DNA from: Eubacteriales bacterium
Lineage (GTDB): Bacteria; Bacillota; Clostridia; Oscillospirales; CAG-382
Length of the DNA stretch: 64,000 nucleotides
Direction of reading: 5' to 3'
Assembly (NCBI GenBank): GCA_045589515.1
Contig: JAZNPH010000045.1
Span: 5,560 to 69,559, forward strand
The stretch's first letter is position 1. Every line of letters begins with the position of its first letter. Below are positions 4,329-64,000 of this stretch, piece by piece. The translations under genes and the position numbers were made by a program. Below the pieces are notes generated by a model. It did not search any database. It was not told where the DNA came from and saw only the letters and a list, made by a program, of their open reading frames with translations.

Positions 4329-4332
4329 GGAT

Positions 4333-7546: not shown

Positions 7547-7548
7547 TG

Positions 7549-8001: not shown

Positions 8002-8058
8002 CTCGCTCACAGGAGTCCCTCCTTTCGTGAATTCAGTTTTTACAGTATACAATATTTT

Positions 8059-19202: not shown

Positions 19203-19247
19203 AAAAACTAAATAACTCCAAGTAGTACTGTACTGAAAAGGTGCGGG

Positions 19248-42899: not shown

Positions 42900-42919
42900 A
42901 TATCAGTACCGCCTTTCAA

Positions 42920-44116: not shown

Positions 44117-44161
44117 TCTAATTTCACACCTTTCTCAATTGTTTCAAGCGAAGAAAGATGA

Positions 44162-44551: not shown

Positions 44552-44571
44552 TTTAATCAATCTCCTTAAAT

Positions 44572-45138
44572 TTATTGAAGTTTGGTGACAGAAATTACTT
44601 TGAATGCGCATTCGGACTCGCCGCGCTCTGCAGCAATGGCAGCAGTAGCAATGGCAACGATGAGCTGTTCATCGTCAGCGGCGGGAGCAACGGGTGCTGC
44701 AGGGGCGGGTGCGGGAGCAGCCTTGGGTGCTTCTGCAGGCTTCTTAGAGCCGGAAGTGGCGAACAGCTTGAACACGTACAGGATCGCCATGATCAAAATC
44801 AGAACCAAGAATACGACGGCCATACCGATACCGGCCACCTGTAAGCCATACATAAACTTTTCTCCGATAGGTGCATCGGGATCGATGTTAGCAAAGCCGC
44901 TGGAAAACTTGTCGACCTCTGCGGGAGCTGTAACGCTTTCCTCGGTTTGTGCGGCAGAAGATTCCGTTTCGACTTCGGCTTCCTCCGCGAAGGCCACGAC
45001 GCCGGTCATCGCCAGCAGTGCAAAAGCCAACACGCAAGTCAACAGAATCCGAAGGAACTTTCTGTTTTTCGTGCCTGAATCTCTGAGACTCAAGTTAACA
45101 CATCCTTTCTTTTTTCGGGCTGACCCACAGTCAGCCAT
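44572..45138 (-). CDS. OadG-family gamma subunit with an unusual N-terminal extension
   Basis: Core FMYGLQVAGIGMAVVFLVLILIMAILYVFKLF plus the C-terminal ...DDEQLIVAIATAAIAAE... is OadG-like. Start is uncertain: a TTG at 45093 follows AAAGGA by 9 nt and would give a signal-peptide-like N-terminus, and an internal ATG lies at 44853. Confidence 0.65.
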   Translation of the reverse strand: MADCGSARKKKGCVNLSLRDSGTKNRKFLRILLTCVLAFALLAMTGVVAFAEEAEVETESSAAQTEESVTAPAEVDKFSSGFANIDPDAPIGEKFMYGLQVAGIGMAVVFLVLILIMAILYVFKLFATSGSKKPAEAPKAAPAPAPAAPVAPAADDEQLIVAIATAAIAAERGESECAFKVISVTKLQ

Positions 45139-45423: not shown

Positions 45424-45894
45424 TTACTTACTACCCGTAAACGGGTCCCGTGGGTCGAACATGCTCAACTGATCGCTTTCCTGATCCCGCTTCAACTGTT
45501 CTGATATGTATTTCTTGATTTCCTTCGTGTTCTTCCCCACGGTATCAACGTAATATCCCTTACACCAAAATTCGCGATTTCGGTATGCGAACTTCATGTT
45601 TCCCCATCTTTGGAATATCAGCAATGCGCTTTTTCCTTTCAAATAGCCCATGAATCCCGAAACGCTCATTTTGGGCGGGATACTCACCAGCAGATGTATG
45701 TGGTCAGGGCAAACTTCTCCCTCGATTATTTCTACACCTTTCCATTGGCATAATTGGCGAAGTATCTCTCTTATCTCCAAACGTTTCTCTTCAAAAAATA
45801 CTTTTCTTCGGTATTTTGGCGCAAATACAATATGGTACTTGCAATTCCATTTCGTATGTGCTAAACTACTTGTGTCTATGGCTTCTTTTTTCAT
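45424..45894 (-). CDS. tnpA: IS200/IS605-family Y1 (HUH) transposase TnpA
   Basis: WNCKYHIVFAPKYRRKVF (HUH motif region), PDHIHLLVSIPPK, the catalytic Tyr region GYYVDTVG. 156 aa. Confidence 0.92.
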   Translation of the reverse strand: MKKEAIDTSSLAHTKWNCKYHIVFAPKYRRKVFFEEKRLEIREILRQLCQWKGVEIIEGEVCPDHIHLLVSIPPKMSVSGFMGYLKGKSALLIFQRWGNMKFAYRNREFWCKGYYVDTVGKNTKEIKKYISEQLKRDQESDQLSMFDPRDPFTGSK

Positions 45895-48162: not shown

Positions 48163-51100
48163 TTATTGGATCAAGAAATAATACTCGGCCTCCGCCACGG
48201 TGATCAAGCCCTGCTCGGCGGTCAAAACCAAGCAATAGCTGTTCGCAGAGTTACCTGCAAGAGAAATCTCCAGCTCTACGGTGTGTGCAATGAAATCCTT
48301 CGTGTCGATCTTTCTGGTGACGGCGGTACTGCTGTAGGTGCCGTCCTCGCTCTTGACCATCAGAACCAGCTCCAGCTCATGAGTGGGAGGCAGGTCTGCC
48401 CAGGAGACGGTTACCACAGCGGTAGCACCCACCTCATACAGCTTTTTGTCGGCGGTGATCTTCAGAGAAACGTTTTCACTGCGCACCGCTTTCAGCTTGA
48501 GCTCGGCGGAACGGAGAAGCTCGCCGTTCATGGGAGAGCCTTCCGCACGGGAGTTGGAGGAGCGCCATTCCACAGTGAATTGGTATTCCGTCTCGGTCTC
48601 GGGGAGTAGCCCGGATACCAGAGTGACGGTGATGAAGCCGCCGCCCTGCAGCATGGGATACACAAATTCTCCGTTGCTGTTGGCGTAGATCTCGGTGGTG
48701 GCTTCCCCGTTCTTCACCAAAAGGTGAGCGTCCGCGGGAAGGGTGACTCCGGATTGCGGGATGAATACCAGAGCTTCATCGCGGTTTTTCCACTTGGAGG
48801 CAATTCCCGCAGAGGGAGTGTAGATATAGTCAAGCTCGCCGTAATTCCCAGTAGCCGACAAGGTGTAGGAGGGTGCATCCTTTAAGGAGGTAACTGCCTG
48901 TTCCTGAACGTTTGCCGCACCGGAAGCGTCAGCCTTGTCTGCCGTAAGGGCGGTGGTCAAGGTATCCCCTGCCACGGTGCTGTCCGCGCGGGAGAAGTCT
49001 ACCACAAACTGCAGATTCAACGAGCCGTTTCCGTATGAGAATTTGATCTCTTCCGTGCCGAGGCGGACAAAGGAGGTCAGCTCCAGCGACGAATAGCCGG
49101 AAGCATCTGCCCAATAGTAAATGCCGGTGTTGCGATCCAACATCAGAACCGTGGTTCCGGTAGGAAGGGCGGCACTGAACATCAGCTTTATCGCCTTGTA
49201 CTCGGTGCTGTCGTAGTTGTCCACGTCAAAATAGACGGTGAAAGCGGAATCGCGGCTGATGGTTGCGGTGTCCGTGGTCACGGTTCCGAAGACCTGGTCC
49301 TCGGTGACCTTGGAGGAGACGGTCATCAGCTTTTTGGCGTCGGAAATGGTGATGGTGATGGTACAATCGGCGGGAATGTTATTGATCACATAGACCCCAA
49401 CAGAACCGTTTGGTGTAAGCACCGCTTCGCGGTCGTCCAAACCCTCGGTTTCTGTTTGAATGGTTACCGCATGCCCTATGGGATAGAAATAGCCGCTCTG
49501 CAAGGTATATTGCAAAGTGATACCGTTTTCCAGATTCGTGCCGTTGGCTTTCTCAAGGGTATATTGGATCCCCTCTCCGCAAATGACCTCCACCTTCACG
49601 TTACCGGTAAAGAAATATACGCTGTCCGCCGCTATTTGGGGAGAGGCGTTGTAGTTTGCCCCCTCGCTGTAGCGGGCGTAGATATAGTAGTTGGTCAGAG
49701 CGACGTTCAGCTCAAATTTGGCGGCATAGCCACCTTCAAGATCGCTTCCCTTGATCCATTCGGTAGAATACTCGACGCCGTTCGCGTAATACACCACGCG
49801 GTACTCGGCGTAGGAATCGTAACCGTCAGTGCCCGTCAAAGGAGAATTGGGAACGGGATATACCGAAAGAATCGAGCCGTCTGCGTCAATATTTGCATCG
49901 AACTTGGGTTTTTCGGCAGGTGCAGACTGGTCGGCCTTGGCGATGGTATAGGTGACGGATGCGGTACAATCTCCCGCCGTTACGGAGGCGGTGTAGGTTC
50001 CCGCGTACTTGGGAATACCAACATCCGTATCCCCTTGCCGATAGGTAACGGGCAGGCTCCAGGAGGAAGAACAGTAAACGCGGACGGGATGCTCCGCCTT
50101 GTCGTATACGGTGTTTTCCGCCGTCAGGGTGATCTGCTCGCTGTATCCGCCGCACTCACAGTCTCTGCGGAGAGTTCCGCCGTTTGCGGAATAGGTATAG
50201 GTATGGGTTTCGGGGTTATGGTCGCATTTTTGCCAAACGGCGTACAGGGTCACTACCTCGCCTTTTTTGGTGGTCAGGTTGGTGACCGTATCTTGATCTC
50301 CGTACTCCACTCCGCCGTCGGGGGTAGTGGACCAGCCTTGGAACAGATAACCGGGACGCGCGAATTGATTGGCGTCCAATTGAGTGGGCATGTCGTAGGT
50401 AAAGTTGACGCTGGGCATATTGCCGGAGTAGGTCTCCCCTGCAGGCACGTTGGGATCGTAGATCACGGTGTAGCCGTTGGGTTCCCAAATGGCATACAGG
50501 ATCAAGTCGCCGATAGGCTCTCCGTCGAACGTGTAGACCGACGAGACGTTAAACCAACCGGTTGCCTCACCCGGGTGCATCCCATACTCGTAGTCATCCA
50601 AGGGATCGTCGCTTTTGCCGGAGGAGGTGTTCCAGCCCTTGATGGTATAGCCGGGGTGGCTGTAGATGTTACCGCTGATGGTTACCTTGGAACCGATTAC
50701 TATCTCCAAAGACTTATACTGTCCGGTGGTGACGTTGGTGATGGGGTCGGTGAAGTTCTCGTAATAGTGGAGCTTGTAATACGCTTTCGTAATACGGTGG
50801 TCCTCGAAGTAGTCCCCCTCTTTTTTGATGTCGACGGTGATGACGTCCGAAATACGGGGGTTGGTCATATCACCCCACAGATCCATCTGACCGCCGGTGA
50901 CGTAAATGGAGTTCTCTACGTGGGTGTTGCCGAAGTTGGAATCCTGCTTTTCTTCATCCTGATGCTGAGAGGTGGTCACGGTGACCTTACCGCCGTCCAC
51001 TCTCATGAAATCGCTTTGACCATTGTCGGCGTTGGCGCTACTGCCTTTTTCCTCCAAGCAGTAGAGGTTCAGCACCGTGGAGGTATTACCGGTGACGTAC

Positions 51101-53751
51101 ACACCGCCGCCGGAAGCCAAAGAGGAATTGTATTTGATCACGGGACAGGTAACTGCATCGGCGCGGCCGTGGGGAACGTCCGAAAGCTTATTGCCATCGT
51201 CATCCACGTGCCTCTTATTGACGCCTACCGTTACCTCGATCTTCTCGGTGCCGTCTTGTGCGCCCACAACGGCCAAAGCACCGCCGTTACCGGTGGCTTC
51301 GTTATCGCTGACAGAACCGCTGTAAACGTTAACCGTTACATTTTGATCGTTTGCGCTGACGTAGATGCCGCCGCCCATACCGTTTTGGGCAGTGTTGCCG
51401 TCCACGTTACCGCCGGTCATTTGGTAGTTACCGTTGTTGACAGCGATACCGCCGCCGCTGTTCTGCGCCGTGTTGGCAGAAATGCTGCCGTTGGTAACCT
51501 CGACGTCGCCGCCGTTGATATAGGCACCGCCGCCATTCTCGGATGCGGAGTTGCCTGTGATGCTACCGCCGTTGACGGTAAATTTGCCGCCGCCAAGGTA
51601 GACACCGCCGCCGTTTTGTGCAGCGGAATTGGCTTTGATCTCGCCGCCTTCAACGGTCATTTCGCCGCCGCCAAGGTAGACACCGCCGCCGTTTTGGGTG
51701 GAGGAGCAGCCTTTGATCACGGCTTCCCCGGAGATGGTACAAGTGCCTGCGGTCATGTAGATCGCGCCGCCGTTTTCAGCCGCACAATTTTGAATGGTAC
51801 CGCCGGAAATCTCTACGGTTCCTCGGGAATCGTTCATATACACGGCGCCGCCGTTTTGCTGGGCATAAATAAACTGAGAAGTATCGCCTGTATCCACGCT
51901 ATGGAGGGTACCGCCTGTCATTATAAAGCTACAAGGCTGGGTGCCACCTTCCGACATCAGGAACTGGCCGCTGATATCGCCGCCGGAAATATCTGCTTTT
52001 GCGTAGCCAAGGCTACCCTCGGTATTTAAAGTATCACCGCCGCCGATGGAACCGGTTTTGATGACACCGTCGGTAACGTATACTTCTGCCGCACCGCCGT
52101 TACCGCCGGTACCACCTTTGCCGCCACCGATGGAAGCGGCTGTTAAGGAGCCTCCGTTGATCTTCACGGTAGCATCGCCGCCGTTGCCTATCTCGTTTCC
52201 GGCACCGCCGCCGATGGAACCGCCGACAGTCATGGTGCCTCCCTTGACGGTAATGGTTGCGCTGCCTCCATTGCCGGATTGACTCAGGCCACCGCCGATG
52301 CCGCCGGAAAGCGTAACGTTTGCCGTTCCGGAAATCGTTACGTCCGCGCTACCGCCCACACCGCTGGCACTGTCGCCGCCGCCAATGGAGCTGGCGATCA
52401 CAGTTCCGCCGGAAATGTTGATGGTCGCTTTACCGCCTGTAGAAGTTGAGCTGTTGCCGCCGCCGATGCCGTTGCCGAAGGTACCGTAGGCTTCCACATA
52501 GCCACCCTTGATCGTGACGGTACCGGTGGCGCCGCCGGCATTAAAGGAGCTTCCGGAGCCGATGGCAACACCGCCTACCACCTTATCATATGGCTTGTCC
52601 GGGGAGGTAATATTTGAACCATTAACATAGATCTTGCCATGGTTTTTTGCGTACACTTTGCCGCCGGTAATGGTAATATTGGAAGTGCCACCGGCACTGA
52701 ACCAACCGATGCCGCCTCCAATAGCCGCCCCTGTTCCATTGCAATGGGCGATGACCTCACCACCGGAAATCGTCATGGTACAAGACCCGTTTCCGCCGGC
52801 ACCGATGGCGGTACAGTTCTCCGCATAGGTGGTCAAGACCTGCAATTTGCCACCTGCGATCTCTAAGTTGGTTACGTTTGATACGCTGTCGTTTCCGCCA
52901 ATACCGGAATTCCAATGGTTATAGCTGGCGTTAGAGTTAACAAACGCATCGATCTGATCCTCAGGCACCTTTACAGGAATATATAAAGAGCCTCCGTCGA
53001 TTGCACCGTCGCCATTAATATCCGTGATTTTCAAGGAAGAACCGGCTGCATTACCCTGCGTATAATAATGAATCGCTCGAACAATGTTTTCGCCCTTCAA
53101 ACGCAAGATTACCTTTTTTGCCAAGGACTGATTTCCCGGCTGCATATCAATCGTTCCCTGAGCGTAGCTTGCCACATAGGACGTATTCGGAACGTGACCG
53201 CTTTTTGACGGACTTCCTAAATGGATGCCGGAAAGAGTAACGTCAAAGGGATCGGCAACCGCTCCGGTAAATTGAATGGTATTGGTTGAATAAGAAGAGA
53301 CGTCACTTTGTGTGATGACGTAGATATTGGAAGCTGCATGAGTTCCGGTAACAGCTCCCCCATTACCGGAGTAAGTGGCACCCAGGGTAACGCTTCCCTT
53401 GGAAAGGTCGAAGACCACCAGCTTTCCGATGGGGCCGACGGGATCGCTTTCCGTGCCGTTGGCTTTGACGCGAATGTATTTTCCCTCGTCGACGGCGGTG
53501 ATGTCATAATAGAAGTCGTTGGCACCGCTAATGTCGGCAAAGGTCCCGTCTACAGTGTCTGCTCTCTGCCACTGATAAGAAGCAGAGGAAGCTTCGGTTT
53601 TAGCTACCAAACGGGAACCGTTGGGCAAAACGGTCACGGGAGAGGCCGCCCATACGAATACTACGAAGAAAGATAAAACAAAGACGCTTACAACAAAAAG
53701 CAGACCCACTGCATAAAGGAGATGAGCGTTTTTTACGTTGTTCTTTTTCAT
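48163..53751 (-). CDS. giant secreted surface protein (1862 aa): signal peptide, Gly-rich and parallel beta-helix (PMP-like) repeats, two Listeria-Bacteroides-type repeats, C-terminal region shared with the 1513-aa paralogue
   Basis: Signal ...VFVWA|AS. Repeats SIGGG..., NGGGVYLGGG.., NGGAIYM, NGGALAV. GYTIKGWNTS...LYAIWE and GYLFQGWSTTPDG...LYAVWQ are Flg_new/List_Bact-type repeats. No LPXTG, SLH or C-terminal TM. Confidence 0.8.
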   Translation of the reverse strand: MKKNNVKNAHLLYAVGLLFVVSVFVLSFFVVFVWAASPVTVLPNGSRLVAKTEASSASYQWQRADTVDGTFADISGANDFYYDITAVDEGKYIRVKANGTESDPVGPIGKLVVFDLSKGSVTLGATYSGNGGAVTGTHAASNIYVITQSDVSSYSTNTIQFTGAVADPFDVTLSGIHLGSPSKSGHVPNTSYVASYAQGTIDMQPGNQSLAKKVILRLKGENIVRAIHYYTQGNAAGSSLKITDINGDGAIDGGSLYIPVKVPEDQIDAFVNSNASYNHWNSGIGGNDSVSNVTNLEIAGGKLQVLTTYAENCTAIGAGGNGSCTMTISGGEVIAHCNGTGAAIGGGIGWFSAGGTSNITITGGKVYAKNHGKIYVNGSNITSPDKPYDKVVGGVAIGSGSSFNAGGATGTVTIKGGYVEAYGTFGNGIGGGNSSTSTGGKATINISGGTVIASSIGGGDSASGVGGSADVTISGTANVTLSGGIGGGLSQSGNGGSATITVKGGTMTVGGSIGGGAGNEIGNGGDATVKINGGSLTAASIGGGKGGTGGNGGAAEVYVTDGVIKTGSIGGGDTLNTEGSLGYAKADISGGDISGQFLMSEGGTQPCSFIMTGGTLHSVDTGDTSQFIYAQQNGGAVYMNDSRGTVEISGGTIQNCAAENGGAIYMTAGTCTISGEAVIKGCSSTQNGGGVYLGGGEMTVEGGEIKANSAAQNGGGVYLGGGKFTVNGGSITGNSASENGGGAYINGGDVEVTNGSISANTAQNSGGGIAVNNGNYQMTGGNVDGNTAQNGMGGGIYVSANDQNVTVNVYSGSVSDNEATGNGGALAVVGAQDGTEKIEVTVGVNKRHVDDDGNKLSDVPHGRADAVTCPVIKYNSSLASGGGVYVTGNTSTVLNLYCLEEKGSSANADNGQSDFMRVDGGKVTVTTSQHQDEEKQDSNFGNTHVENSIYVTGGQMDLWGDMTNPRISDVITVDIKKEGDYFEDHRITKAYYKLHYYENFTDPITNVTTGQYKSLEIVIGSKVTISGNIYSHPGYTIKGWNTSSGKSDDPLDDYEYGMHPGEATGWFNVSSVYTFDGEPIGDLILYAIWEPNGYTVIYDPNVPAGETYSGNMPSVNFTYDMPTQLDANQFARPGYLFQGWSTTPDGGVEYGDQDTVTNLTTKKGEVVTLYAVWQKCDHNPETHTYTYSANGGTLRRDCECGGYSEQITLTAENTVYDKAEHPVRVYCSSSWSLPVTYRQGDTDVGIPKYAGTYTASVTAGDCTASVTYTIAKADQSAPAEKPKFDANIDADGSILSVYPVPNSPLTGTDGYDSYAEYRVVYYANGVEYSTEWIKGSDLEGGYAAKFELNVALTNYYIYARYSEGANYNASPQIAADSVYFFTGNVKVEVICGEGIQYTLEKANGTNLENGITLQYTLQSGYFYPIGHAVTIQTETEGLDDREAVLTPNGSVGVYVINNIPADCTITITISDAKKLMTVSSKVTEDQVFGTVTTDTATISRDSAFTVYFDVDNYDSTEYKAIKLMFSAALPTGTTVLMLDRNTGIYYWADASGYSSLELTSFVRLGTEEIKFSYGNGSLNLQFVVDFSRADSTVAGDTLTTALTADKADASGAANVQEQAVTSLKDAPSYTLSATGNYGELDYIYTPSAGIASKWKNRDEALVFIPQSGVTLPADAHLLVKNGEATTEIYANSNGEFVYPMLQGGGFITVTLVSGLLPETETEYQFTVEWRSSNSRAEGSPMNGELLRSAELKLKAVRSENVSLKITADKKLYEVGATAVVTVSWADLPPTHELELVLMVKSEDGTYSSTAVTRKIDTKDFIAHTVELEISLAGNSANSYCLVLTAEQGLITVAEAEYYFLIQ
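51586..51696 (-). repeat. 78-nt in-frame tandem repeat inside the beta-helix region (33-nt core identical)
   Basis: gccgccgccaaggtagacaccgccgccgttttg occurs at 51586-51618 and again at 51664-51696. It encodes NGGGVYLGGG(E/K)(M/F)TV(E/N)GG(E/S)I... 26-aa units. Confidence 0.8.
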
Positions 53752-53766
53752 AGTGCGTCTCTCCTT

Positions 53767-54588
53767 TTATGATGATAGGTCTTCTTTCTTGGCAATGTAT
53801 ATACCGTCGATGGTAATGATGAAATCTTCTATGGTATAGTTTTCGGGGTTGTCCACAAAGAAGCGGTAGGTATAGGAAGAATAGTTCTTGGTGAAGTTTG
53901 CGCTGTCTTTAAAAGAAATTGCTTGATAGGCGCCGTCTTTATAGTTATAGATCTCCCGCAGGGCGGGGTCGGTATTGTCGGGAATCAAGCCTGCTTTATC
54001 GCAGGAGACATACAGGGCACCTGCCACATTCTCCGTCCACACCGTAAGCAGGACGTAGGCGCTGTGAGAGGTATCCAGGTGTTTATACACGTTTTCCGCT
54101 TGGTCGGAAACGCGGAATTCTGCAGTCAAGGTCTGTTCGTAGCCTGCTTCTCCTGTGGCAACCACCGTATAGGTATTCCCCTTTTGGAGCTCCGACAGGG
54201 TGATGGTAACAGAAGACAGCTCGTTCCCCTTCAAGGTTCCGCCGGATACGCTGAGGGTGGGAGCGGGGGTCTGCTCTTCCTTGCAGGTCACGGACAGGGT
54301 GTAGGTTATATCGTCCTCGGAAAAACGCAGTTTGTCGATATGGTTTTCCAGAGTAAAAGTAACCGAGGTGGAGGTTGCATTCAGGACGTACTCTCCCTTG
54401 GTCTCTTTTAAAAGATTGCTGGTGAAGTAAAACTCCTTGGCATCAAACAGGTTTTCACCTTCGTTGGAATGGATATACTTGGCGAAAACACCGCCAAGGA
54501 TGGCCATCAGCACCACCGCCAGAACGCCGGTGATGATGTATTTGCGCTGAGAAAAGAACTTGTTATGGGATTTGCTTTGCTTTTCCAT
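53767..54588 (-). CDS. medium (273 aa) secreted protein with SipW-cognate-like N-terminus; paralogue of 59775..60521
   Basis: ...YIITGVLAVVLMAILGGVFAKYIHSNEGENLFDAKEFYFTSNLL. Shares FY..S(D/N)LL, LR.SE and PDNTDP motifs with the 248-aa protein. Start at 54588 (MEKQSK) is preceded by AAAGGAGA. Confidence 0.6.
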   Translation of the reverse strand: MEKQSKSHNKFFSQRKYIITGVLAVVLMAILGGVFAKYIHSNEGENLFDAKEFYFTSNLLKETKGEYVLNATSTSVTFTLENHIDKLRFSEDDITYTLSVTCKEEQTPAPTLSVSGGTLKGNELSSVTITLSELQKGNTYTVVATGEAGYEQTLTAEFRVSDQAENVYKHLDTSHSAYVLLTVWTENVAGALYVSCDKAGLIPDNTDPALREIYNYKDGAYQAISFKDSANFTKNYSSYTYRFFVDNPENYTIEDFIITIDGIYIAKKEDLSS

Positions 54589-54605
54589 CGGCAAGTCTCC
54601 TTTCG

Positions 54606-55097
54606 TCAATCTACCTGATGGGCTTCAATGAGAATCTCCACCAGATCTACCATGCCCATATATTCCAAAGCGCCTTCGGGATCCCAAAAGGCAGTAATGG
54701 TTACGGTGGACTCGGTGTTGGGCTCAATGTAGCAGGTAACCACACACTTCTTTTGAACCGGTTCGGAGCCGTTCACGGAGAACGCATACGGAATATTGCC
54801 GGTTTTGTTTTGGATGGTCACCTTGTAGCCCACGGCGACCTCGCTGTTGTTGGTAACGAGGATCTCTCTTTCAACCGTCCCGGGGACCGCATCAATGGTG
54901 AATTCCGATTGGAATGACGTGGCATTCTCGGAAATGTCAAATTTAGCAACCCGAGCAGAATCCTGCCCCGAGGAGGTGGTTGTGTAGCGGGCGTAAAGTC
55001 CCGAGAGCATGGAGGTGGAAAAGGCCGTCATACACAAAAGAATGAGAGCGAGGCGGATCATGAAATGCCCGATATAAATTCTGTTTTTACCGTTCAT
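54606..55097 (-). CDS. small (163 aa) TasA/camelysin-like candidate fibre subunit with SipW-cognate-like signal
   Basis: MNGKNRIYIGHFMIRLALILLCMTAFSTSMLSGLYARYTTTSSGQDSARVAKFDI... is near-identical in its N-terminus to 60533..61039. Ends ...LIEAHQVD. Confidence 0.6.
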   Translation of the reverse strand: MNGKNRIYIGHFMIRLALILLCMTAFSTSMLSGLYARYTTTSSGQDSARVAKFDISENATSFQSEFTIDAVPGTVEREILVTNNSEVAVGYKVTIQNKTGNIPYAFSVNGSEPVQKKCVVTCYIEPNTESTVTITAFWDPEGALEYMGMVDLVEILIEAHQVD

Positions 55098-55197
55098 TCG
55101 GAAACTACCCCTTTCTCTGATAATGCCTATTTATAGACCTATAGGGACGCGATGGAAAAGATACGCCACGCGTCCCTATGGTAAGCTTTCATTTCGG

Positions 55198-58100
55198 TTA
55201 CTCCAAGACAATCAAGCTGATGGGAACCTGAATCGTCTCGTTGTCGTTGTACGCTTTCAACAGCAAACGATAGGTTCCGGGAGATGTTTCGCCGCTGAGC
55301 TTCACCACCACGGTACCGTCTGCCAATAAACCGCATTTAAACACGCCGTAGTCGCCCTGTGTTACATCGTTCACCGCTTCGATGACGTTGGTTTGCGTCA
55401 CGTAGGCGGCGCCGATCTTCCTTTGGCATTCCACGGTAATAGTGTCGGCATTTTGGGTTTTAAGTTTCACGGTCAGTGCTGTGGTAAGCTCCTCGGTGTG
55501 GAGCAAACGATCGCTGACGAAATCCACCCGCAATGATGGTTTCGTTTTGTCGGAGACAGCAAGATTCACGGGAGCTGCAACGGCATTCCCCATCATCGGG
55601 GCAGAGCCGTCTGCGGTTGCGGACGCCCAAAGCTCTATTTTCAACGTAGCAGACTTTACCGTTGGCGAATGGAAGGAAAGCGTTACAGTTCCATCCCCCT
55701 CCTGGACAGACGGCAAAGGAATCAAGAAGGTTCCTGCACCGGACATGTAATAGCGGGAATCTCCCACTTTTACATAGGAATTCACAGGAAGTGCCGACGA
55801 AGATCCCGAGCTGATCACCAAAGAGAAATTTCTGTTGGTGTAGCGGGAATCAGAAACGGAGCACTCCGTTTTGTAATCCAGTGTGATCTCTTCCTCCACG
55901 GAAACGGATACCTGAGAGGTGGAGAGGGAAAACTCCCTCTTTTTCACCGTTTGGAAGGTTAGAGAAGCAGGCGCGGTATCGTCCGTGCCGGATTTGATAG
56001 TCCTTTGCAGGGAAACGGTGTTGGTTCGGCAGGTCTCCCCCGCTTCCGGGAAGGAGACGAGGAATAGCAACCGCTCCGTTGTCACCGCTGTGCTTTGGGA
56101 CTCTGTAAAGAACCCGTTTTCGCCCATGACCTTGAAGGATTTCAAAGGAATCTCGGTGGACGTCCCGTCTGCCGTATAATGATAATACTTCAGAGACGCA
56201 GAATCCGTCCAGTCGATCATGGTGATGGTGGTGCCTTCTGCCAAAGGCTTTCCGTTTTCAAAAACAAGCTTGAGATCCTGATAGTTGGCAGGAATATAGT
56301 CCTTTGTGACAAACTGTGCCGTAAAGGCAGAATCGGCGCTGACCACCGCACTTGTTTTCCCTTCGAAGGGAACGAAGACTTTACCTGCAACAATGGCAGA
56401 GCTGGTTGCTTCAGCCGCGGCAAGCTCGCGGCGGATGGTGATGAACACCGGTACGATAACGCCGTTATCCCCTACCAGCGTCAGTGCAACAGTACGTTCC
56501 GTTACGATATCGCTGAGAGCGTTTGCGTTTTCGATGGTGAAGATAAATTCGGGAGCTGTGTTCCTCGGCAAGGATCCGACCAAGGTATCGTCCTTTTTGA
56601 TGGGAACGGGGGGGCTTCCCACTTCGTCGGTGGCGCTGTTTTTCACCGAAACCTTGATACGGAAGTTTTCGTTTGCTTCCGCACTGGAGGCGGAGCTGAA
56701 GTCATACGTGCCGTCCATCAGGTTCACGTTGAAGGGTGTAATATGCTTGATGGAATAAGACTGAGCCAATATAAACTGTGGGAGAACGAAGGATGCGGTT
56801 TTGGAACCGTCCAGAGGCTCGCCCTTGGCCGCAGTCAAGGTGATCGATTTGGGAACTTCCGGAGTATATTGGAGCGTAATGGTACAGCCATCGGTAGATT
56901 GGATACCTGCAGTACTGTTGGAGCCAATGGTATAATGATAATAGCCACGGCTGTGCCAACGGATCTTCATACCTGCGAGCTGGGGATACTCCGTATCCTC
57001 CCCTGTGTATTTCAGGGGCACGGAAATAACACTGACCGACCCGTTGTTGATGATATCTCCATCTGCTATCACCTTAATGGCAGTAACCTCTTCCCAGGTT
57101 TTTCCGGAAGGAAGCGTTTCCACCCAATTTTGGGCACTATAAGCTTGATCGTAATTTTTCACTTCGTCAAAGCAATATCGAAGCTTTAATGGGGTCCCCT
57201 GCTGATTGTGCAGCGTTGGAGCGGAGCTGACCGCCAAAGTGATGTCGCACTGCTCCACAAAGTTGGAGTTGAGATCAAAGCCCTTCTTGGCGATGGGGAT
57301 GATGTAGTAGAAATCTTTTGCAGTACCGCCTTCGATGCACTTCACCTGCAACTGATAGGTAACGATATCCGCAAAGTTCTCCATGGGAACGTTGCTTCCG
57401 CTTTCTCCCTTGGAATTGATCAGGCTGTCAGTAATATCCAGCTCTGCGGGACGGGCAAAAAAGGTGACGGAGCCTGCAGAAGCGAAGCACCCCACATTAT
57501 CGCCGGTTCTCCCGTCACCGGTCAAGTCATACGTATCTTTTACAGCATTCTTTGAATACGAACCTCCGGCACCATTGCTCCTTTTATATCCGGCAACAAA
57601 CACACATTCGCGCAAATTAATCGTTCGGGTCGACATCGTGCTGTCGCTATTCAATTGAAGCGAAAACGATAATGTATTGCCGTGGGGCAATGCCCCTAAA
57701 GTCTCGTTATAATATCCAATCTTTTCGCCTCGTTTAAACTCGATGATGTAAAAAACATCCGTTGCACTAACCGGTTTAGGGGTTACATTAGCAACCTCAA
57801 GCGTTCCGCCCACATATTTGGCGGTAATGGAAGCAGTATTCACCGTAACGCCTTTGGGCAAAAGAAGACCGAGTCGAATATCGTTGAGACACGCATTACT
57901 GGTATAAGGGTATCGAATGACAAACACTCTGCCGCTAATTGTGACAGAACCGCCTGCATTTACGGAATTCGAAGATAGCGCAGCAGCTTCCAAGCCGTAT
58001 GATACACCGGTACCGTTGTCAAAAACCGAACTGCAGGTTGCATTGAAAACTTTATTCTTCTCCTCGCCGTCAACGGTGTATAACGTAATTCTATGCACCG

Positions 58101-59739
58101 GCTTTATAGCAGGCATCTCGGAAATGTTCACATATCCCCAAATCGTGCCGGCGGAATATGCGGCAGAAGAGGCACCGGCGTGGTATGCTTTACTGTTTCC
58201 CGGCAGATTCCCCATAGAATAGGAAAGCATTTTGAAATAATATGCACGATGATCCGCCGGAAGATTATTGCGGGAAAAAACCAGATAATGAGCTTCTGTT
58301 ATGGTTTTGCCCGGAGAGTAGTGCGGATTCTTGACAGAAGTCGTGAAAGAGCGCCCCTCAAAGGCAGGATTTCCGTCCCGATCCACCAAAGTATACTCAA
58401 TGGAAATCATCTCCGTATCTCTGTCACACATCAAGTTGACGGTGGTAACAGATACATGGTTTGTTTCATTGGTATCAAAAGAAAGTTCTATCCAAAGAGG
58501 CCCGCTACCGTTCAATGCGGAATCGTTGCGCATGGCAAGCGTTCCCATTAACTGAACTGCCTCCAAATCCAAAACATTTGCTTTCCCGTTCACGGTGTGA
58601 GCCTTTAAAACCGCCTCGGTATTGGTATCAAGGCGAATTGCAAAAGTATGATCCTTTAACGTTCTTCCGTCAATACTTACGGAAACCTTACCGTAGAATG
58701 TATAGTTGCCGGGAACGGATTTTAGTGCTTCCGGCGCTGAAAACAGAATTTCAAACAATTTTGAACTTTTGAAATACATCTGCTCTGCTCTGATTTGAAC
58801 AACACCCGTCTCCTCGTCATAAGATTCCGTAAACACAGGTGTCCCATTCGCCGTCGACAAAGAAACATTGCTGTACTTCAATCTATGGGTCGTACCGCTC
58901 ACGGTACACACAGGAAGACTGATACTGACCTTTAAATCTTTAATCAGATTATCACAACCTAAATTGTTCGATGAAAAATAAGAAAAAATAGTTTTAAGAG
59001 TCCCTTCGGCACCCATAATATCCGTGGCAACGGAGGAACCGCCAACCAAATAGGACGAAGTCGTCGTCTCATACGAAAGCTGACCGGAAACGGTGATCTG
59101 TTTCAAAGAAACCGAAGGTCCAACCGGTTCAAAAACACCTTCCCCATTTTCCTGCATCAACGTGAATTTCAAAAGCGGGGTTTCCCCATCGCCCAGGCCA
59201 CTGCCATTCTGCTTATCCCATAGGCCAGGGGTAAATCGGAACGGCAAGCTCATGGTAAGCGCATTTAAGCCCTCATTCAAGGTATAGGTCAATTGAGCAT
59301 AACTGTACTTATGCGGCGTATATTCTCCATCGGTATTGACCGTAAAAGGATCATTTCTCTGTGCCGTGATGGTAGCGTCCCCAGAAGAAGGATCGTCGGT
59401 TAGATTCACATACAGCACAGGGTCCATTTCAATTACGAAACGGTACTGCTTGTCCGTGGACATACCATCTATCTGAAGCCACAAATAACGGTCCGTGGAG
59501 GTGTAGTTTGCGTTGTCATACTCCCAGTCGGTCAATTTGGAGCCTTCCTGTGTGAGAGGGGTATCCAAGCTGGCTCGGTCGGCGTCGAAATACAGTCCCG
59601 CAGAGAAGCTGACATCACCTGCGGTATAAACCGCTTCTTCGGCGGCGGCAACCGTCGGGAGCGGGGGCATCAGGGGACAAAGGACGCAAAAGGTCAAAAG
59701 CCCTGCCAACAAACGCAATCCGATTCTTCTGTTGTTCAT
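55198..59739 (-). CDS. giant secreted surface protein (1513 aa), no recognised catalytic or anchor motif; C-terminal ~380 aa homologous to the 1862-aa protein
   Basis: Signal peptide ...LPTVAAA|EEA and a long beta-rich sequence. C-terminal VSADSAFTAQFVTKDYIPANYQDLKLVF...GTTITMID matches ISRDSAFTVYFDVDNYDSTEYKAIKLMF...GTTVLMLD of the other giant. Confidence 0.75.
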   Translation of the reverse strand: MNNRRIGLRLLAGLLTFCVLCPLMPPLPTVAAAEEAVYTAGDVSFSAGLYFDADRASLDTPLTQEGSKLTDWEYDNANYTSTDRYLWLQIDGMSTDKQYRFVIEMDPVLYVNLTDDPSSGDATITAQRNDPFTVNTDGEYTPHKYSYAQLTYTLNEGLNALTMSLPFRFTPGLWDKQNGSGLGDGETPLLKFTLMQENGEGVFEPVGPSVSLKQITVSGQLSYETTTSSYLVGGSSVATDIMGAEGTLKTIFSYFSSNNLGCDNLIKDLKVSISLPVCTVSGTTHRLKYSNVSLSTANGTPVFTESYDEETGVVQIRAEQMYFKSSKLFEILFSAPEALKSVPGNYTFYGKVSVSIDGRTLKDHTFAIRLDTNTEAVLKAHTVNGKANVLDLEAVQLMGTLAMRNDSALNGSGPLWIELSFDTNETNHVSVTTVNLMCDRDTEMISIEYTLVDRDGNPAFEGRSFTTSVKNPHYSPGKTITEAHYLVFSRNNLPADHRAYYFKMLSYSMGNLPGNSKAYHAGASSAAYSAGTIWGYVNISEMPAIKPVHRITLYTVDGEEKNKVFNATCSSVFDNGTGVSYGLEAAALSSNSVNAGGSVTISGRVFVIRYPYTSNACLNDIRLGLLLPKGVTVNTASITAKYVGGTLEVANVTPKPVSATDVFYIIEFKRGEKIGYYNETLGALPHGNTLSFSLQLNSDSTMSTRTINLRECVFVAGYKRSNGAGGSYSKNAVKDTYDLTGDGRTGDNVGCFASAGSVTFFARPAELDITDSLINSKGESGSNVPMENFADIVTYQLQVKCIEGGTAKDFYYIIPIAKKGFDLNSNFVEQCDITLAVSSAPTLHNQQGTPLKLRYCFDEVKNYDQAYSAQNWVETLPSGKTWEEVTAIKVIADGDIINNGSVSVISVPLKYTGEDTEYPQLAGMKIRWHSRGYYHYTIGSNSTAGIQSTDGCTITLQYTPEVPKSITLTAAKGEPLDGSKTASFVLPQFILAQSYSIKHITPFNVNLMDGTYDFSSASSAEANENFRIKVSVKNSATDEVGSPPVPIKKDDTLVGSLPRNTAPEFIFTIENANALSDIVTERTVALTLVGDNGVIVPVFITIRRELAAAEATSSAIVAGKVFVPFEGKTSAVVSADSAFTAQFVTKDYIPANYQDLKLVFENGKPLAEGTTITMIDWTDSASLKYYHYTADGTSTEIPLKSFKVMGENGFFTESQSTAVTTERLLFLVSFPEAGETCRTNTVSLQRTIKSGTDDTAPASLTFQTVKKREFSLSTSQVSVSVEEEITLDYKTECSVSDSRYTNRNFSLVISSGSSSALPVNSYVKVGDSRYYMSGAGTFLIPLPSVQEGDGTVTLSFHSPTVKSATLKIELWASATADGSAPMMGNAVAAPVNLAVSDKTKPSLRVDFVSDRLLHTEELTTALTVKLKTQNADTITVECQRKIGAAYVTQTNVIEAVNDVTQGDYGVFKCGLLADGTVVVKLSGETSPGTYRLLLKAYNDNETIQVPISLIVLE

Positions 59740-59774
59740 TGCTTTCTCCCCCCTTCGATGTCGTTGAAAATTTC

Positions 59775-60521
59775 TTACGGAACTGCTTTTGTCACAGTGA
59801 TCTGGCTGCTGTAATCCTTGGCGGGATCATTTTTATAAAAAGTAAACGTATACTGAGAATTTGCTTTGACGGTCACTTGGCAGGACATTCCGCTTGCGAA
59901 AGCCAGCAAAGGATCCGTATTATCGGGGACGACGCCATCAAGCCAGGAAATGATAACGTCCCCATGATAATCCGTCGTGGTAACGACAACATGCAGAAAA
60001 GGACTACCTATATTGTCATTTACCTGAACAGCCAGGTCAACGTTTTCCGCCACAACGGTGAAGCGCCCCTGCAATCTGGTTACGTAGGGAGACGTAGACG
60101 TGACGGTAACGGTGTAAACACCCGGTTCAAGGCCGTCAAAGGTAACGATCTCTTCGTCTCGAACACCCGCAGACAACGCAATGGTTTGCTTTTTCTCCCC
60201 GAAAGAAGAGGTCAGCACCACCTCGCATTGAACGGCAGTCTCGGAAACCCGTAATTCGTCGGGATAGTTCATCAACCGAAAGGAGATCTCCTTGACACCC
60301 GCTTGCAGAGTATACAAGGGAATCGGTTCGGTTTCAACCGCCAAAAGATCGCTTTCCAAGTAGAAGCTTTTGGCAATATAGGGCGTATCGGAGGTTTCCG
60401 CCGAAACGTATTTTGCCAACGTATACACACCCGCAGACACCGCAACGGCAAGCACGAGAAACGCCGTCACGGACAGGAGAATCATTCTGTTGTGGCGGGG
60501 AACTTGCTTGCGATTGTTCAC
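59775..60521 (-). CDS. medium (248 aa) secreted protein with SipW-cognate-like N-terminus; paralogue of 53767..54588
   Basis: ...MILLSVTAFLVLAVAVSAGVYTLAKYVSAETSDTPYIAKSFYLESDLL... and ...GVVPDNTDPLL.... Confidence 0.6.
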   Translation of the reverse strand: MNNRKQVPRHNRMILLSVTAFLVLAVAVSAGVYTLAKYVSAETSDTPYIAKSFYLESDLLAVETEPIPLYTLQAGVKEISFRLMNYPDELRVSETAVQCEVVLTSSFGEKKQTIALSAGVRDEEIVTFDGLEPGVYTVTVTSTSPYVTRLQGRFTVVAENVDLAVQVNDNIGSPFLHVVVTTTDYHGDVIISWLDGVVPDNTDPLLAFASGMSCQVTVKANSQYTFTFYKNDPAKDYSSQITVTKAVP

Positions 60522-60532
60522 CGGATTACCTC

Positions 60533-61039
60533 TTAATCGATCTGTTCTGTTTCTATAATCACCTGCAAAGCGTCCATTTCAAACGCTTGGGTAGCAGGCT
60601 GGGGAGATTCCCAAAGGATCTGTACCTCGTAGGTAACGGATTGAGATTCCCCTGCGTGGAAAACGCCTTGGATCTTGTCGATCTTCGTTTGCTCTCCCCC
60701 ATCCACCTTAAAGTACGTAAAGGCGAGGGGAAGGTTTTTCGTCAGATTGATCACCTTGACGCGGTATGTCTGGGCAACCTCGCAGACGGAACCGCCCTCC
60801 GTGTTTGTTATGGTAAAGCGGATGCGGTTTTCTTCACCCGGGGCGGCATACAGATCGGACAGGGTATAGGTCGCATCCCCGGCCATCAGCGCCACACGGG
60901 CGGAATCCTGCCCCGAGGATTTGGTGAGATAACGAGCATAGAGTCCCGACAGCATGGCAGTGGTGAAGGCGGTTGCGCACAAAAGAATCAATGCGAGACG
61001 CATGGTGAACTGTCCGCTAAGTATCCGTTTTTTGTCCAC
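60533..61039 (-). CDS. small (169 aa) TasA/camelysin-like candidate fibre subunit with SipW-cognate-like signal
   Basis: Start set at GTG 61039 (AAGGAGGG 6 nt upstream), because alignment with the 163-aa paralogue begins at DKKRILSGQFTMRLALILLCATAFTTAMLSGLYARYLTKSSGQDSARVA. Ends ...IIETEQID. Confidence 0.6.
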   Translation of the reverse strand: MDKKRILSGQFTMRLALILLCATAFTTAMLSGLYARYLTKSSGQDSARVALMAGDATYTLSDLYAAPGEENRIRFTITNTEGGSVCEVAQTYRVKVINLTKNLPLAFTYFKVDGGEQTKIDKIQGVFHAGESQSVTYEVQILWESPQPATQAFEMDALQVIIETEQID

Positions 61040-61055
61040 GATGCGCCCTCCTTTT

Positions 61056-61643
61056 TTAGTCTTCGGTCTTCTCTTGCGTGTCTTCGGGTTGGTTCTGCAT
61101 AGATTGCAGGCGGCGGATCTCTTCCTTGATCTGCTCCAATTCATCCATGGATTCCTGTTTTTCCTTGCGGAAGGAACGTTCCATCAGGAAGAAAGCGGCG
61201 CCGAGGATGAGAATGATGCCCAAGGGAGAACGGATGAAGGTGAGGATCAGCCCCACATAGGGCAGAGAGGCCACCACTTCCCCTTTGATGTCGGAAAGCT
61301 TGATGGCGGGATCCGCAGTTTGATTGGCATCCCCTTGGGTGACGACGGATTCACCGTCGATGGAAATGATGCGGTGGACGATGAGTGTTCCGTAGCTTTG
61401 GTACACCACCACGTCCCCCACCTCGTAGGAATCCCGCGCGATGACGATGATCATATCGTTGACTTGAAGCTCCGGTTCCATGCTGCCGGAAAGCACCACG
61501 GAGGTTGCGAAGCCCAAGGGCATGGGCATTTTGTTGCCGCCGAGGCTGCGGGCGTTCCAGGAATACAATTGGATTCCCAGAAAAGCACCTGCCAGGGCGA
61601 TGATCACAATGCGCAGGATCAGGCGTTTTGTGTTGGTCTTCAT
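61056..61643 (-). CDS. sipW: archaeal/ER-type signal peptidase I (SipW-like, S26B)
   Basis: VLSGSMEPELQVNDMII...GDVVVY...LIVHRII...TQGDANQTADP is the Ser/His S26B pattern as in B. subtilis SipW. A C-terminal TM helix is followed by a charged tail. ATG at 61643 forms an ATGA overlap with the upstream stop. Confidence 0.88.
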   Translation of the reverse strand: MKTNTKRLILRIVIIALAGAFLGIQLYSWNARSLGGNKMPMPLGFATSVVLSGSMEPELQVNDMIIVIARDSYEVGDVVVYQSYGTLIVHRIISIDGESVVTQGDANQTADPAIKLSDIKGEVVASLPYVGLILTFIRSPLGIILILGAAFFLMERSFRKEKQESMDELEQIKEEIRRLQSMQNQPEDTQEKTED

Positions 61644-62560
61644 AAGGTATCGTATGCAGAGTGTCTGTTTTTTGCTTGGTAAACCACGTAAAGCCCTGCA
61701 AGGGCCGCCAAAGCGATCAACAACCACCAGAAGGTAGAGTTATCGTCCCCGGTGACAGGCAGGTCGCCGCTGCTGTTATCGGAATCGGCACTTTGCTTGG
61801 CGTTGGTTTCGATGATCACGGTGAGGGTGACCTCCTGGTTTTCCACTGCAAGGTTGCCCAGGTATGTGTCGTACTCGTCGTCCCCTTCAAAAGCCCATTC
61901 CCAATCCATGGTGTAGGTATGCTGTCTGCCTGCGCCGATGGTGCTTTCGCACACCATGCCGTCCAGATCCAGAATATCCTCAAAGGAATCTTCGGAGCCT
62001 ACGGCATAGCTTCCGTCGGCAGTGCGGAGGCGCACCTTGATGGGAACGTCGTGATCGCTGAAGTTGACGAAGGCGGAAAGGTCCAGAGAGTAATCCAAAG
62101 CGAAATCGCCGGAATTTTCCAGAGTGAAGGTATATGCGTTGGAGGTGCCGGGGGCGATGACCTTATCGGTGCCGCCGTCCACGGTGATCTTGCCCTCCCC
62201 GTTTTCATAGGAGACCTTGAACAGCTCCACGTTGGTAATGCCGTTCCAGATGGTATTTTCGTCCGCGGGAGTGGAAGACGTATCCAGAGGACGGAAGGTG
62301 TTCAACGCATAGGGAGAAGCGGGGATCTTCAGCTCCGCTTCGGGGAAGGTGATGCGGCCGTCTTCATCCATTCTGCCCACACGCACGGTGGTACGTGCGT
62401 GGGAGCGGGTAAGGGAAAACACGTTGCGGGAGGGCTCGCCGGAAAAGGGAGTGAGGCGGCTACCCAGCATCACCAGAGCGCAGGCTTCGAAAAGGAGCAG
62501 CAAAGCGATGAGAACGCTGAACACGCTGTTATTCTTTTTGAGGCTTTTGTACTCGTTCAT
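61640..62560 (-). CDS. TasA-like-domain surface protein with LPXTG cell-wall sorting signal
   Basis: N-terminal TM/signal. Body motifs SNAYTFTLENSGDFALDYSL and HTYTMDWEWAFEGDDEYDTYLGNLAVENQEVTLTVIIET parallel the 235-aa protein (FDISWKWLFEGDN...DTVLGDAA...LKIDITVTQ). C-terminus LPVTGD plus hydrophobic helix plus KNRH. Confidence 0.7.
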   Translation of the reverse strand: MNEYKSLKKNNSVFSVLIALLLLFEACALVMLGSRLTPFSGEPSRNVFSLTRSHARTTVRVGRMDEDGRITFPEAELKIPASPYALNTFRPLDTSSTPADENTIWNGITNVELFKVSYENGEGKITVDGGTDKVIAPGTSNAYTFTLENSGDFALDYSLDLSAFVNFSDHDVPIKVRLRTADGSYAVGSEDSFEDILDLDGMVCESTIGAGRQHTYTMDWEWAFEGDDEYDTYLGNLAVENQEVTLTVIIETNAKQSADSDNSSGDLPVTGDDNSTFWWLLIALAALAGLYVVYQAKNRHSAYDTL

Positions 62561-62644
62561 ATACGCTTTTATCCTCCTTTTGGGTAGGTTGTAGGAAGTT
62601 CTCTTCCCTTTGTAGACTTCCGTAGGAGCACGGGAGCTTGCAAA

Positions 62645-62693
62645 GAAAAAAGAGGGGAATACGCCCCTCCGACCCGGCCACGTCGGGTCGGAG
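62645..62693 (-). terminator. intrinsic terminator/attenuator directly after the 235-aa subunit gene
   Basis: Minus strand: ctccgacccg-acgtgg-ccgggtcggag, then gagggg-cgtatt-cccctc followed by ttttttc. Confidence 0.7.
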
Positions 62694-62722
62694 AGACGAA
62701 AAGTGCTTTTTTGTGTGTTTGA

Positions 62723-63430
62723 TTAGTCGATCTGGGTAACGGTGATATCGATTTTAAGACCAATATTCAAATCTGCCAATGCAGCAGCATCGCCAAGCAC
62801 GGTATCGTACACATCGGTCTGTTTAATCTTCTCGCCGGAGTTATCACCTTCGAACAGCCATTTCCAACTAATGTCAAACGCTGTACCATTAGTAATCTCG
62901 GACAAATCCTTGTTAGGATCATACTTTGCAGAGTATGCCTCGATTTTTTCTTCAACGGCAGCGATAAAGCCGTCCGCATTATCATAATCTAAACCAGAAA
63001 CAGTTTCAGTACCAATGGTAAAGACAACAGGGCAGTAGAACTTGTCTACTTCGTCTACTTCAACCAACCAATTATCAGAAAGAGTCATGGTCGCCACAAA
63101 CTTTACGTCAACTGCAACCTCAGGAGTTCCTGCAAGCGTAATCTCGGTAAGCTTACCCTGAGTACCGGGGGCGAGAACAAAATCCTTGTCACCAGTTCCA
63201 GAAGATACAGAATAAGTTCCGGTAAAATTATCATCTTCTTTCGCGTAGTCTTTTAAAAACAAGGTGTTGTTTTCAGCAACGATTTTAACACCGAACTTTG
63301 CAACTCTTGCGGTGTCGGTTGCGCTGTCAGAAGTAACATACTTCGCGAAGGTGCCGCTGATGGCGCAGGTGGACATGAGAACTGCGATCAAGAGAACGGA
63401 AGCCAGTCTCATCATCTTGTTTTTCTTCAT
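62723..63430 (-). CDS. 235-aa TasA/BsaA-like candidate major fibre subunit with SipW-cognate-like signal
   Basis: MKKNKMMRLASVLLIAVLMSTCAISGTFAKYVTSDSATDTARVAKFGV... with a strong SD (GAAAGGAG). Followed by its own terminator. Ends ...IDITVTQID. Confidence 0.65.
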   Translation of the reverse strand: MKKNKMMRLASVLLIAVLMSTCAISGTFAKYVTSDSATDTARVAKFGVKIVAENNTLFLKDYAKEDDNFTGTYSVSSGTGDKDFVLAPGTQGKLTEITLAGTPEVAVDVKFVATMTLSDNWLVEVDEVDKFYCPVVFTIGTETVSGLDYDNADGFIAAVEEKIEAYSAKYDPNKDLSEITNGTAFDISWKWLFEGDNSGEKIKQTDVYDTVLGDAAALADLNIGLKIDITVTQID

Positions 63431-63733: not shown

Positions 63734-64000
63734 TCACTCTGCCTTATTCTCTTCGGGGGCAGATTCTTTCGAAGGAGCTTCCGCAGGTTCTTCCGCAGGC
63801 GCTTCCGAGGGAGCGGTATTGGCGTTCTGCTGAGCCTGACGGGCGCGGAGGGTTTCCAGCTCTGCCAAGAGGGCCTTGGTGTCCGCTTGCTTTTCCTTAT
63901 CGAACTTGCGGCGGCGGAGCATCTCATAGGCGACAAAGATGCCCACGGGAAGGACGATGCACACCAGCAGACCGGGAGTGGTCTGGAGGAACATGGCCAC
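63734..64000 (-). CDS. 3' end of a second SipW-like signal peptidase gene (5' part outside the window)
   Basis: FLQTTPGLLVCIVLPVGIFVAYEMLRRRKFDKEKQ...LLAELETLRARQ aligns with the C-terminal TM helix and charged tail of the SipW at 61056..61643 (FIRSPLGIILILGAAFFLMERSFRKEKQ...EEIRRLQS). The catalytic part is not visible. Confidence 0.55.
   Translation of the reverse strand: MAMFLQTTPGLLVCIVLPVGIFVAYEMLRRRKFDKEKQADTKALLAELETLRARQAQQNANTAPSEAPAEEPAEAPSKESAPEENKAE

Follow-up and report, generated by a model that had tools for sequence, protein, structure and literature searches.

A Clostridia gene cluster with SipW-type signal peptidases and a shared N-terminal junction may encode a surface fibre of the TasA/BsaA kind

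In a 64,000-nucleotide stretch of DNA from a member of the Clostridia (Eubacteriales bacterium, Oscillospirales, CAG-382; assembly GCA_045589515.1, contig JAZNPH010000045.1, positions 5,560 to 69,559), here called the window, the minus strand carries a head-to-tail series of nine complete genes at 48163-63430, with a cut fragment of another gene, S1, upstream at 63734-64000. Five of the encoded proteins carry the same short junction directly behind an N-terminal hydrophobic stretch, and signal peptidases of the SipW type are encoded among them. The present analysis suggests, with a probability that we place at about 0.55, that this cluster specifies a fibre of the TasA/BsaA kind on the cell surface, in which SipW-type cleavage and a donor-strand module are combined. 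An initial annotation of the stretch had proposed that a motif shared by the five proteins is a SipW recognition site plus donor strand; the five minus-strand open reading frames that it listed and the N-termini that it quoted were both correct on re-check.

Results

When the pattern G-x-[FYW]-x(0-2)-A-[KR]-Y was searched as a regular expression across the six frames of the window (127,996 codons), six matches were obtained, against 0.56 expected from composition. Five of these are the junctions of protein A (62723-63430; 235 amino acids, aa), B1 (60533-61039; 168 aa), C1 (59775-60521; 248 aa), B2 (54606-55097; 163 aa) and C2 (53767-54588; 273 aa), in each case directly after the N-terminal hydrophobic stretch, and the sixth lies at 27570-27593 (these and all other window features named here are on the minus strand). 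Alignment of the five proteins yields three invariant junction columns, G26, A29 and Y31 in the numbering of protein A. The A, b and c proteins all have a basic n-region, a hydrophobic stretch and then the junction [GS]-x-[FY]-(x0-2)-A-[KR]-Y, with Gly or Ser placed two to four residues before the conserved Ala. In protein A the predicted signal peptide (aa 1-29; 63344-63430) ends in ISGTFA, with a presumed cut at A29|K30, and the first 19 residues of the predicted mature chain (KYVTSDSATDTARVAKFGV; 63287-63343) form a candidate donor strand and hinge. The corresponding junctions read SGLYA|RY in B1 (60929-60946) and in B2 (54984-55001), GVYTLA|KY in C1 (60408-60431) and GGVFA|KY in C2 (54475-54492). 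Because B1/B2 and C1/C2 are paralogue pairs, the five proteins represent three families and not five independent cases. Chance or simple paralogy was rejected as the origin of the motif, which is conserved across ~80 species.

The conservation extends well beyond the junction. In family A, G26, T27, A29, K30 and Y31 are invariant or almost so, and the sequence logo, counted from the Ala as position 0, runs T(-2), F/Y(-1), A0, K1, Y2, V3, T4, D10, any residue at 11, and then A12, R13, V14, A15, K16, F/W17, G18 and V19, most positions being 95-100% conserved. The c-region is the most conserved stretch of the family, with an entropy of 0.48 bits, followed by a mean of 1.05 for mature residues 1-19 and 2.16 for the body, and the eight most conserved 19-residue windows all fall within residues 13-47. 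The b-type logo has spacing identical to that of A (A0, R/K1, Y2, D10, x, A12, R13, V14, A/I15, x, F17), and A and B2 are identical at 17 of 37 residues across the junction. The c-type proteins, those like C1 and C2, keep A-K-Y and continue with another block, F-Y-F-[TS]-S-x-L, the first Phe of which also lies at +17; of the 286 homologues of C2, the 51 that were aligned have F53, Y54, F55 and L60 invariant, as well as A36 and Y38. Thus, of the motif that had been proposed for all five proteins, the junction half is present in each by both alignment and regular expression, whereas the second half, originally written A(R/K)-x-(A/F), is more exactly a block A-R-V-A-K-F at +12 to +17 that occurs in A and b but not in c. 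A further conserved position of protein A is Cys22 (63365-63367), seven residues before the Ala, where 86% of A homologues have Cys and 13% have Ser.

Family A is large and unannotated. At E ≤ 0.001 it has 7054 homologues among 90%-identity clusters, none with a Pfam domain, and a further count gives 3260 representative clusters at 50% identity; the few homologues that bear any name are all called "hypothetical protein." A look-up of the exact sequence of A in public assemblies gave no record. No curated NCBIfam model matched the family as a whole, searches of A and B2 against Protein Data Bank (PDB) chains and of the A-family profile against PDB returned nothing useful, and we found no specific literature on this family in Oscillospiraceae or Ruminococcaceae. 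Within the cluster, the A-family profile matches protein a (61640-62560; 306 aa) at aa 113-256, and it matches the b proteins over their N-terminal part alone (B1, E 2.9e-12; B2, E 1.6e-16). Because iterative locus searches merged most families partly via the shared signal, the comparison was repeated on bodies alone, with the N-termini removed; profile-profile alignment by hhalign then gave 99.9% probability for A with a and 94.9% for a with b. Together with the N-terminal profile matches, this body-only comparison identifies a as an A-type body without the junction and b as the junction on a diverged body. The C1 body clusters with C2 and 13 open reading frames from related loci.

To place the cluster in a wider context, 83 related loci from ~80 Clostridia species were analysed. 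All 83 have an open reading frame for a SipW-type peptidase beside the A homologue, most of them two, and S1 precedes A in 70. Usually the genes run S1 - A - a - S2 - b - (c) - giant, and behind the giant there is often a gene for a small protein that we call d; the giant follows b or c in most of these loci. The window departs from this common layout in that it carries two b-c-giant modules and lacks d. The 80 loci that were kept come nearly all from Clostridia metagenome-assembled genomes, many of them gut or faecal by their record titles, and relatives of A occur in at least 509 species-representative genomes. The d proteins, which stand after the giant in most related loci (for example at 18457-19044 in locus L001, 8010-8543 in L004 and 17881-18441 in L007), are small and BsaA-like, and their junction takes the form G-T-V-L-A-Y-M-F. 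They match the BsaA model TIGR04090 at E ~4e-11, with 43 bits against a cut-off of 60, and the TasA family with 79% probability in profile-profile comparison. These matches connect the wider type of cluster with the TasA and BsaA systems.

Of the two peptidases, S2 (61056-61643; 195 aa), whose start overlaps the stop of gene a, belongs to the endoplasmic reticulum/archaeal type of the S26 family; it scores 74.7 bits against TIGR02228 (cut-off 51.85; E 7e-21) and has the motifs SGSMEP, VHRI and GDAN. Judged by its sequence, S2 is a catalytically intact SipW-type peptidase inside the cluster. It is not the orthologue of Bacillus SipW, scoring 65 bits against 190 for NF046067. The S1 fragment, an 88-aa C-terminal tail cut by the window end upstream of A, aligns over 49 aa with the tail of the 243-aa S1 of L001 at 86% identity (E 3e-30) and belongs to a first SipW-type signal peptidase. 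In the related loci both peptidase paralogues mostly keep their catalytic motifs, so they are unlikely to be inactive, chaperone-like copies.

All five junction proteins have the conserved Ala at -1 and Thr, Leu or Val at -3. Under the (-3,-1) rule, such residues are compatible with a type I signal peptidase site. Proteins of the TasA family read GGGTWA|AFND at the same place, and the mature TasA chain in the fibre structure begins with AFND. An hhalign comparison sets GGTWAAF on SGTFAKY in register, with a probability of 23.5%.

The AlphaFold2 model of protein A has a predicted local distance difference test score (pLDDT) of 84 and consists of a signal helix (residues 2-24), a coil (25-48) and then a beta-sandwich. 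The pLDDT is 54-63 over residues 21-40 and 86 over residues 41-50, which contain ARVAKFGV. The C2 model (pLDDT 90) comprises an N-terminal helix, a low-confidence linker and two immunoglobulin-like domains.

The remaining cluster genes encode a protein with a sorting signal and two giants. Protein a, with its A-like body, ends in LPVTGD, a hydrophobic stretch and the basic tail KNRH, and it scores 20.9 bits against TIGR01167 (cut-off 15.9); its counterparts in the related loci almost always show the same C-terminal arrangement, xPxTG followed by a hydrophobic stretch and basic residues, and the protein is a putative wall-anchored base subunit. The giant G1 (55198-59739; 1513 aa) has the conventional signal TVAAA|EE and no Pfam match, and G2 (48163-53751; 1862 aa) likewise has a conventional signal, together with a Listeria-Bacteroides repeat (PF09479, E 9.4e-8). 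The initial annotation had set these three proteins apart from the five, and rightly so: neither the regular expression nor a reading of their N-termini finds the motif in the giants or the LPXTG protein, and the conventional signals of the giants read as ordinary AxA-type sites. The N-terminal parts of the giants differ and neither has a C-terminal anchor, but a region of ~345 aa near the C-terminus is homologous (G1 aa 1081-1424 and G2 aa 1440-1782; 27% identity, E 3e-12). This common region looks, from its sequence, like an attachment module under variable heads.

Between A and a there is a terminator-like hairpin at 62651-62670, in the 162-nucleotide gap 3′ of gene A and 5′ of gene a, with a stem of seven pairs, five of them G-C, and then a T run (TTTTTTCTTTG). 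It may act as an attenuator that holds the minor subunits below the level of the major one; its position is suggestive at most, such sites being no more frequent in the region than expected by chance.

Several neighbouring genes were also recorded. Next to the cluster, a 5′-nucleotidase gene (46142-48019; PF02872 and a metallophosphoesterase domain) encodes a protein with the sorting signal IPATGD, a second sortase substrate. Just downstream of the cluster region lies a gene for an IS200-type Y1 transposase (45424-45894; PF01797, E 2.4e-40), and beyond it, at 41484-45138, a biotin-dependent Na+-transporting decarboxylase is encoded by several genes (OAD alpha-like, beta, gamma and biotin carrier), which belong to ordinary metabolism and are unrelated. 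In L001, which comes from a related Oscillospiraceae genome, the cluster comes after a sortase/SpaA pilus cluster that includes an S26 peptidase of its own (1-8529), and before a type IV pilin gene (19217-19588). The export of BsaA reportedly depends on type IV pilus proteins, which makes this pilin gene of interest. The junction proteins of the window are themselves unlikely to be type IV pilins: in a class III signal the cleavage site would precede the hydrophobic helix, whereas here the junction comes after the hydrophobic stretch, and the motif G-F-x-x-x-E is absent.

Discussion

The present analysis suggests that a gene cluster widespread among Clostridia directs the assembly of a surface fibre from subunits that share a signal-peptide junction. 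In the model that we favour, the subunits would be exported by Sec and cut after the conserved Ala by S1, by S2 or by both; the freed N-terminus, chiefly KYVTSDSATDT, would then enter the sheet of a neighbouring subunit as a beta-strand. Protein A would form the shaft, the LPXTG protein a would serve as its wall-anchored base, and each b-c pair would couple one giant adhesin to the fibre. The two parts of this model, cleavage and strand donation, are supported to different degrees.

Several results weigh against this model. None of the five full proteins matches TIGR04088, the model of the SipW-cognate signal, at E ≤ 1, this being one of the checks that the initial annotation had itself proposed; their isolated N-termini have no match at E ≤ 10 in NCBIfam including TIGR04088. 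In such scans very weak matches may be lost to the HMMER filters. PF12389 has no match among the five at E ≤ 1, TIGR04090 likewise has none, and only two of the 141 A-family members touch the latter, at E 0.016. In profile-profile comparison with a 59-member TasA alignment the probabilities are not significant (A 23.5%, from the signal region alone; a 2.1%; b 11.3%; c1 6.2%), and hhalign of family A with a single TasA sequence gives 0.1%, the aligned part being a 13-residue match of the last strand (...ITVTQ on ...FEATQ) that is likewise not significant. The TasA fibre (8aur_A; probability 0.93, E 1.9e-3) heads the PDB matches of the A model, a point in favour of the fibre reading, but the match is weak, with a TM-score of just 0.31 and a root-mean-square deviation of 9.7. 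The c-type bodies have no link to A, a or b in the body-only profile-profile comparison. In the C2 model the N-terminal helix (11-43) runs unbroken through the AKY junction, the block EFYFTSNLL lies in residue blocks of pLDDT 94 and 96, where beta structure starts, and the PDB matches are to generic two-domain immunoglobulin-like structures and not to TasA. Finally, no open reading frame of more than 150 aa in the window has the sortase motif TLxTC.

With these results in view, the likeness of the junction to that of TasA and SipW substrates, as first proposed, is borne out by the in-register alignment and by the adjacent peptidases but not by TIGR04088, PF12389 or TIGR04090, none of which is matched. 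We consider it likely that dedicated SipW-type peptidases cut after the invariant Ala and leave [KR]-Y as the N-terminus. Because TIGR04088 is unmatched and the hhalign probability is only 23.5%, A29|K30 and the four equivalent sites are held as a well-supported inference and not as fact.

Whether the segment behind the cut acts as a donor strand is a more finely balanced question. The initial annotation was right that the TasA donor strand lies just after the cleavage site: it comprises residues 28-38, the first eleven of the mature chain, is anchored by F29, I32 and F39, and when it is removed fibres are abolished (PMC9674648). In BsaA of Clostridium perfringens, a disordered N-terminal segment enters the next subunit, and an isopeptide bond then locks the two (PMC11580942). 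By analogy, the invariant Tyr at +2 would correspond to TasA F29, and the strand proper would be approximately the first 11 residues, KYVTSDSATDT, and not the whole 20; ARVAKFGV would then be a hinge or the first strand of the body. Indirect support for this role comes from how strongly the segment is conserved and from its low-confidence coil in the A monomer model. We give the donor-strand function an even chance overall, regarding it as plausible for A and b and doubtful for c.

The most serious alternative is that the motif is a cleavage or recognition site alone, with [KR]-Y as its P1′-P2′ residues, and that the residues behind it belong to the protein's own fold or constitute a secretion or folding signal, the subunits associating in another way or not at all. 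This would fit the fact that the c-region, and not the mature segment, is the most conserved stretch at 0.48 bits; it would also fit the confident modelling of ARVAKFGV in the A monomer (pLDDT 86) and of the FYF block in C2 (pLDDT 94-96), as well as the lack of a significant sequence link between the bodies of A, a and b and TasA. However, residues 30-40 of A are modelled as a low-confidence coil outside the fold, both characterised relatives with a dedicated SipW, TasA and BsaA, use this very segment as a donor strand, and the anchored protein a retains the body while dropping the segment. In addition, peptidase I enzymes are not, to our knowledge, known to require 19 conserved residues on the primed side. 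We regard a pure recognition site as unlikely.

Less probable still is the possibility that the N-termini are uncleaved signal anchors, so that the five proteins remain tethered with AKY at the membrane surface, while other proteins, such as the giants or a, are the substrates of the peptidases. The unbroken helix 11-43 of the C2 model is what such an anchor would look like, and in the published model of the BsaA system the signal sequence keeps the oligomers anchored in the membrane until SipW acts (PMC11580942). Yet all five proteins have a small residue at -1 with T, L or V at -3, the Gly or Ser before the Ala is typical of a helix-breaking c-region, and the junction matches in register a TasA site that was defined experimentally; moreover, the ordinary AxA-type sites of the giants require no special peptidase. 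We consider permanent anchoring improbable. The idea that A is a lipoprotein, lipidated on its conserved Cys after cleavage by signal peptidase II with AISGTFAKY... as the tether, has in its favour the Cys in 86% of homologues, its usual lipobox distance at residue 22 and the match of 7 of 141 A members to the SP_0198 lipoprotein model (best E 1.7e-6), but is very improbable, since A of the window reads LMSTC with Thr at -1, outside the usual lipobox [AGS] and thus not fitting [LVI][ASTVI][GAS]C, the position before the Cys is occupied across the family by Thr (70%), Ser (27%) or Ala (4%), Ser stands in for the Cys in 13% of homologues, b and c lack a Cys at this place and yet have the same downstream junction, and the conserved pairing with SipW-type peptidases would be left unexplained.

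If the fibre model is correct, a large and wholly unannotated protein family would form the fibre shaft in many gut Oscillospiraceae, Acutalibacteraceae, Lachnospiraceae and their relatives, and the fibre would join two principles that are usually found apart, sortase anchoring and donor-strand exchange. The giant adhesins that it carries would probably set the binding targets of these commensals. The SipW-type signal class would also be widened, with GTFA|KY beside GTWA|AF; because current curated models miss the GTFA|KY class, annotation pipelines label these genes as hypothetical. A bolder and distinctly tentative extension is that the cluster represents a third kind of Gram-positive pilus, with a sortase-anchored base, a noncovalent donor-strand shaft of A and interchangeable giant tip adhesins, each with its own b-c adaptor pair. 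Here the two SipW paralogues might act as gatekeepers that release the donor strand only at the assembly site. Family A holds an invariant K30, E104 and D209, and on the same speculative footing the N-terminal Lys and the Glu and Asp of the body might join subunits by a covalent lock like that of BsaA, where an Asn-Glu-Lys triad serves for an intermolecular isopeptide bond.

The cluster can be compared with four known systems. Chaperone-usher pili (Pap, Fim, CFA/I) resemble it in its proposed logic: one major subunit is accompanied by several minor adaptors, the large adhesin at the tip has no donor segment, and subunits are joined by exchange of N-terminal strands. In contrast, the present cluster has no usher and no demonstrated chaperone, and it belongs to a Gram-positive host with anchoring by sortase; the matches of C2 to PapD-like structures reflect a generic likeness between proteins with two immunoglobulin-like domains (target-normalised TM-score 0.35-0.43). 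The archaeal bundling pili formed by AbpA (7UEG) are chaperone-free jelly-roll filaments in which signal peptidase I exposes an N-terminal donor strand (PMC9245690). They differ in being archaeal and in having no dedicated peptidase gene nearby, and 7UEG is not among the best 50 of 182 PDB matches for the A model.

The closest comparisons are with TasA and BsaA. Like the tapA-sipW-tasA operon of Bacillus subtilis (8AUR; PF12389), the cluster encodes a signal peptidase of the endoplasmic reticulum type beside its substrates, and its subunits have a G-T-aromatic-A | x-aromatic junction with a conserved segment right after the cleavage site and, at least in A, a predicted beta-sandwich for which TasA is the best PDB match, though at a TM-score of only 0.31. 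Unlike in the TasA system, the bodies have no detectable sequence homology to TasA, the residues after the cut are Lys/Arg-Tyr instead of Ala-Phe, there are two peptidases and not one, a sortase-anchored A-like subunit takes the place of TapA, and giants of 1500-1900 aa and several minor subunit families are present. The sipW-bsaA-bsaB-bsaC operon of C. perfringens (TIGR04090) likewise belongs to a clostridium and specifies a SipW-dependent matrix or fibre whose subunits are paralogues. In some strains one paralogue bears LPXTG (PMC11580942), as protein a does here, and the proteins after the giant in the related loci match TIGR04090 below its cut-off. However, the window has neither a BsaA-like gene nor a gene for a von Willebrand factor A protein, and a type IV pilin gene adjoins the cluster in L001. 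BsaA and TasA paralogues have been noted in operons that also encode signal peptidases, sortases and LPXTG proteins, and heteropolymers formed by strand exchange have been suggested (PMC11580942). In view of this earlier account in the BsaA preprint, we regard the present cluster as a divergent form of a known kind and not a new principle. New here are the A, b and c families, the [KR]-Y variant of the junction, the pair of peptidases, the A-like subunit with a sortase anchor, and the giants with their common C-terminal region.

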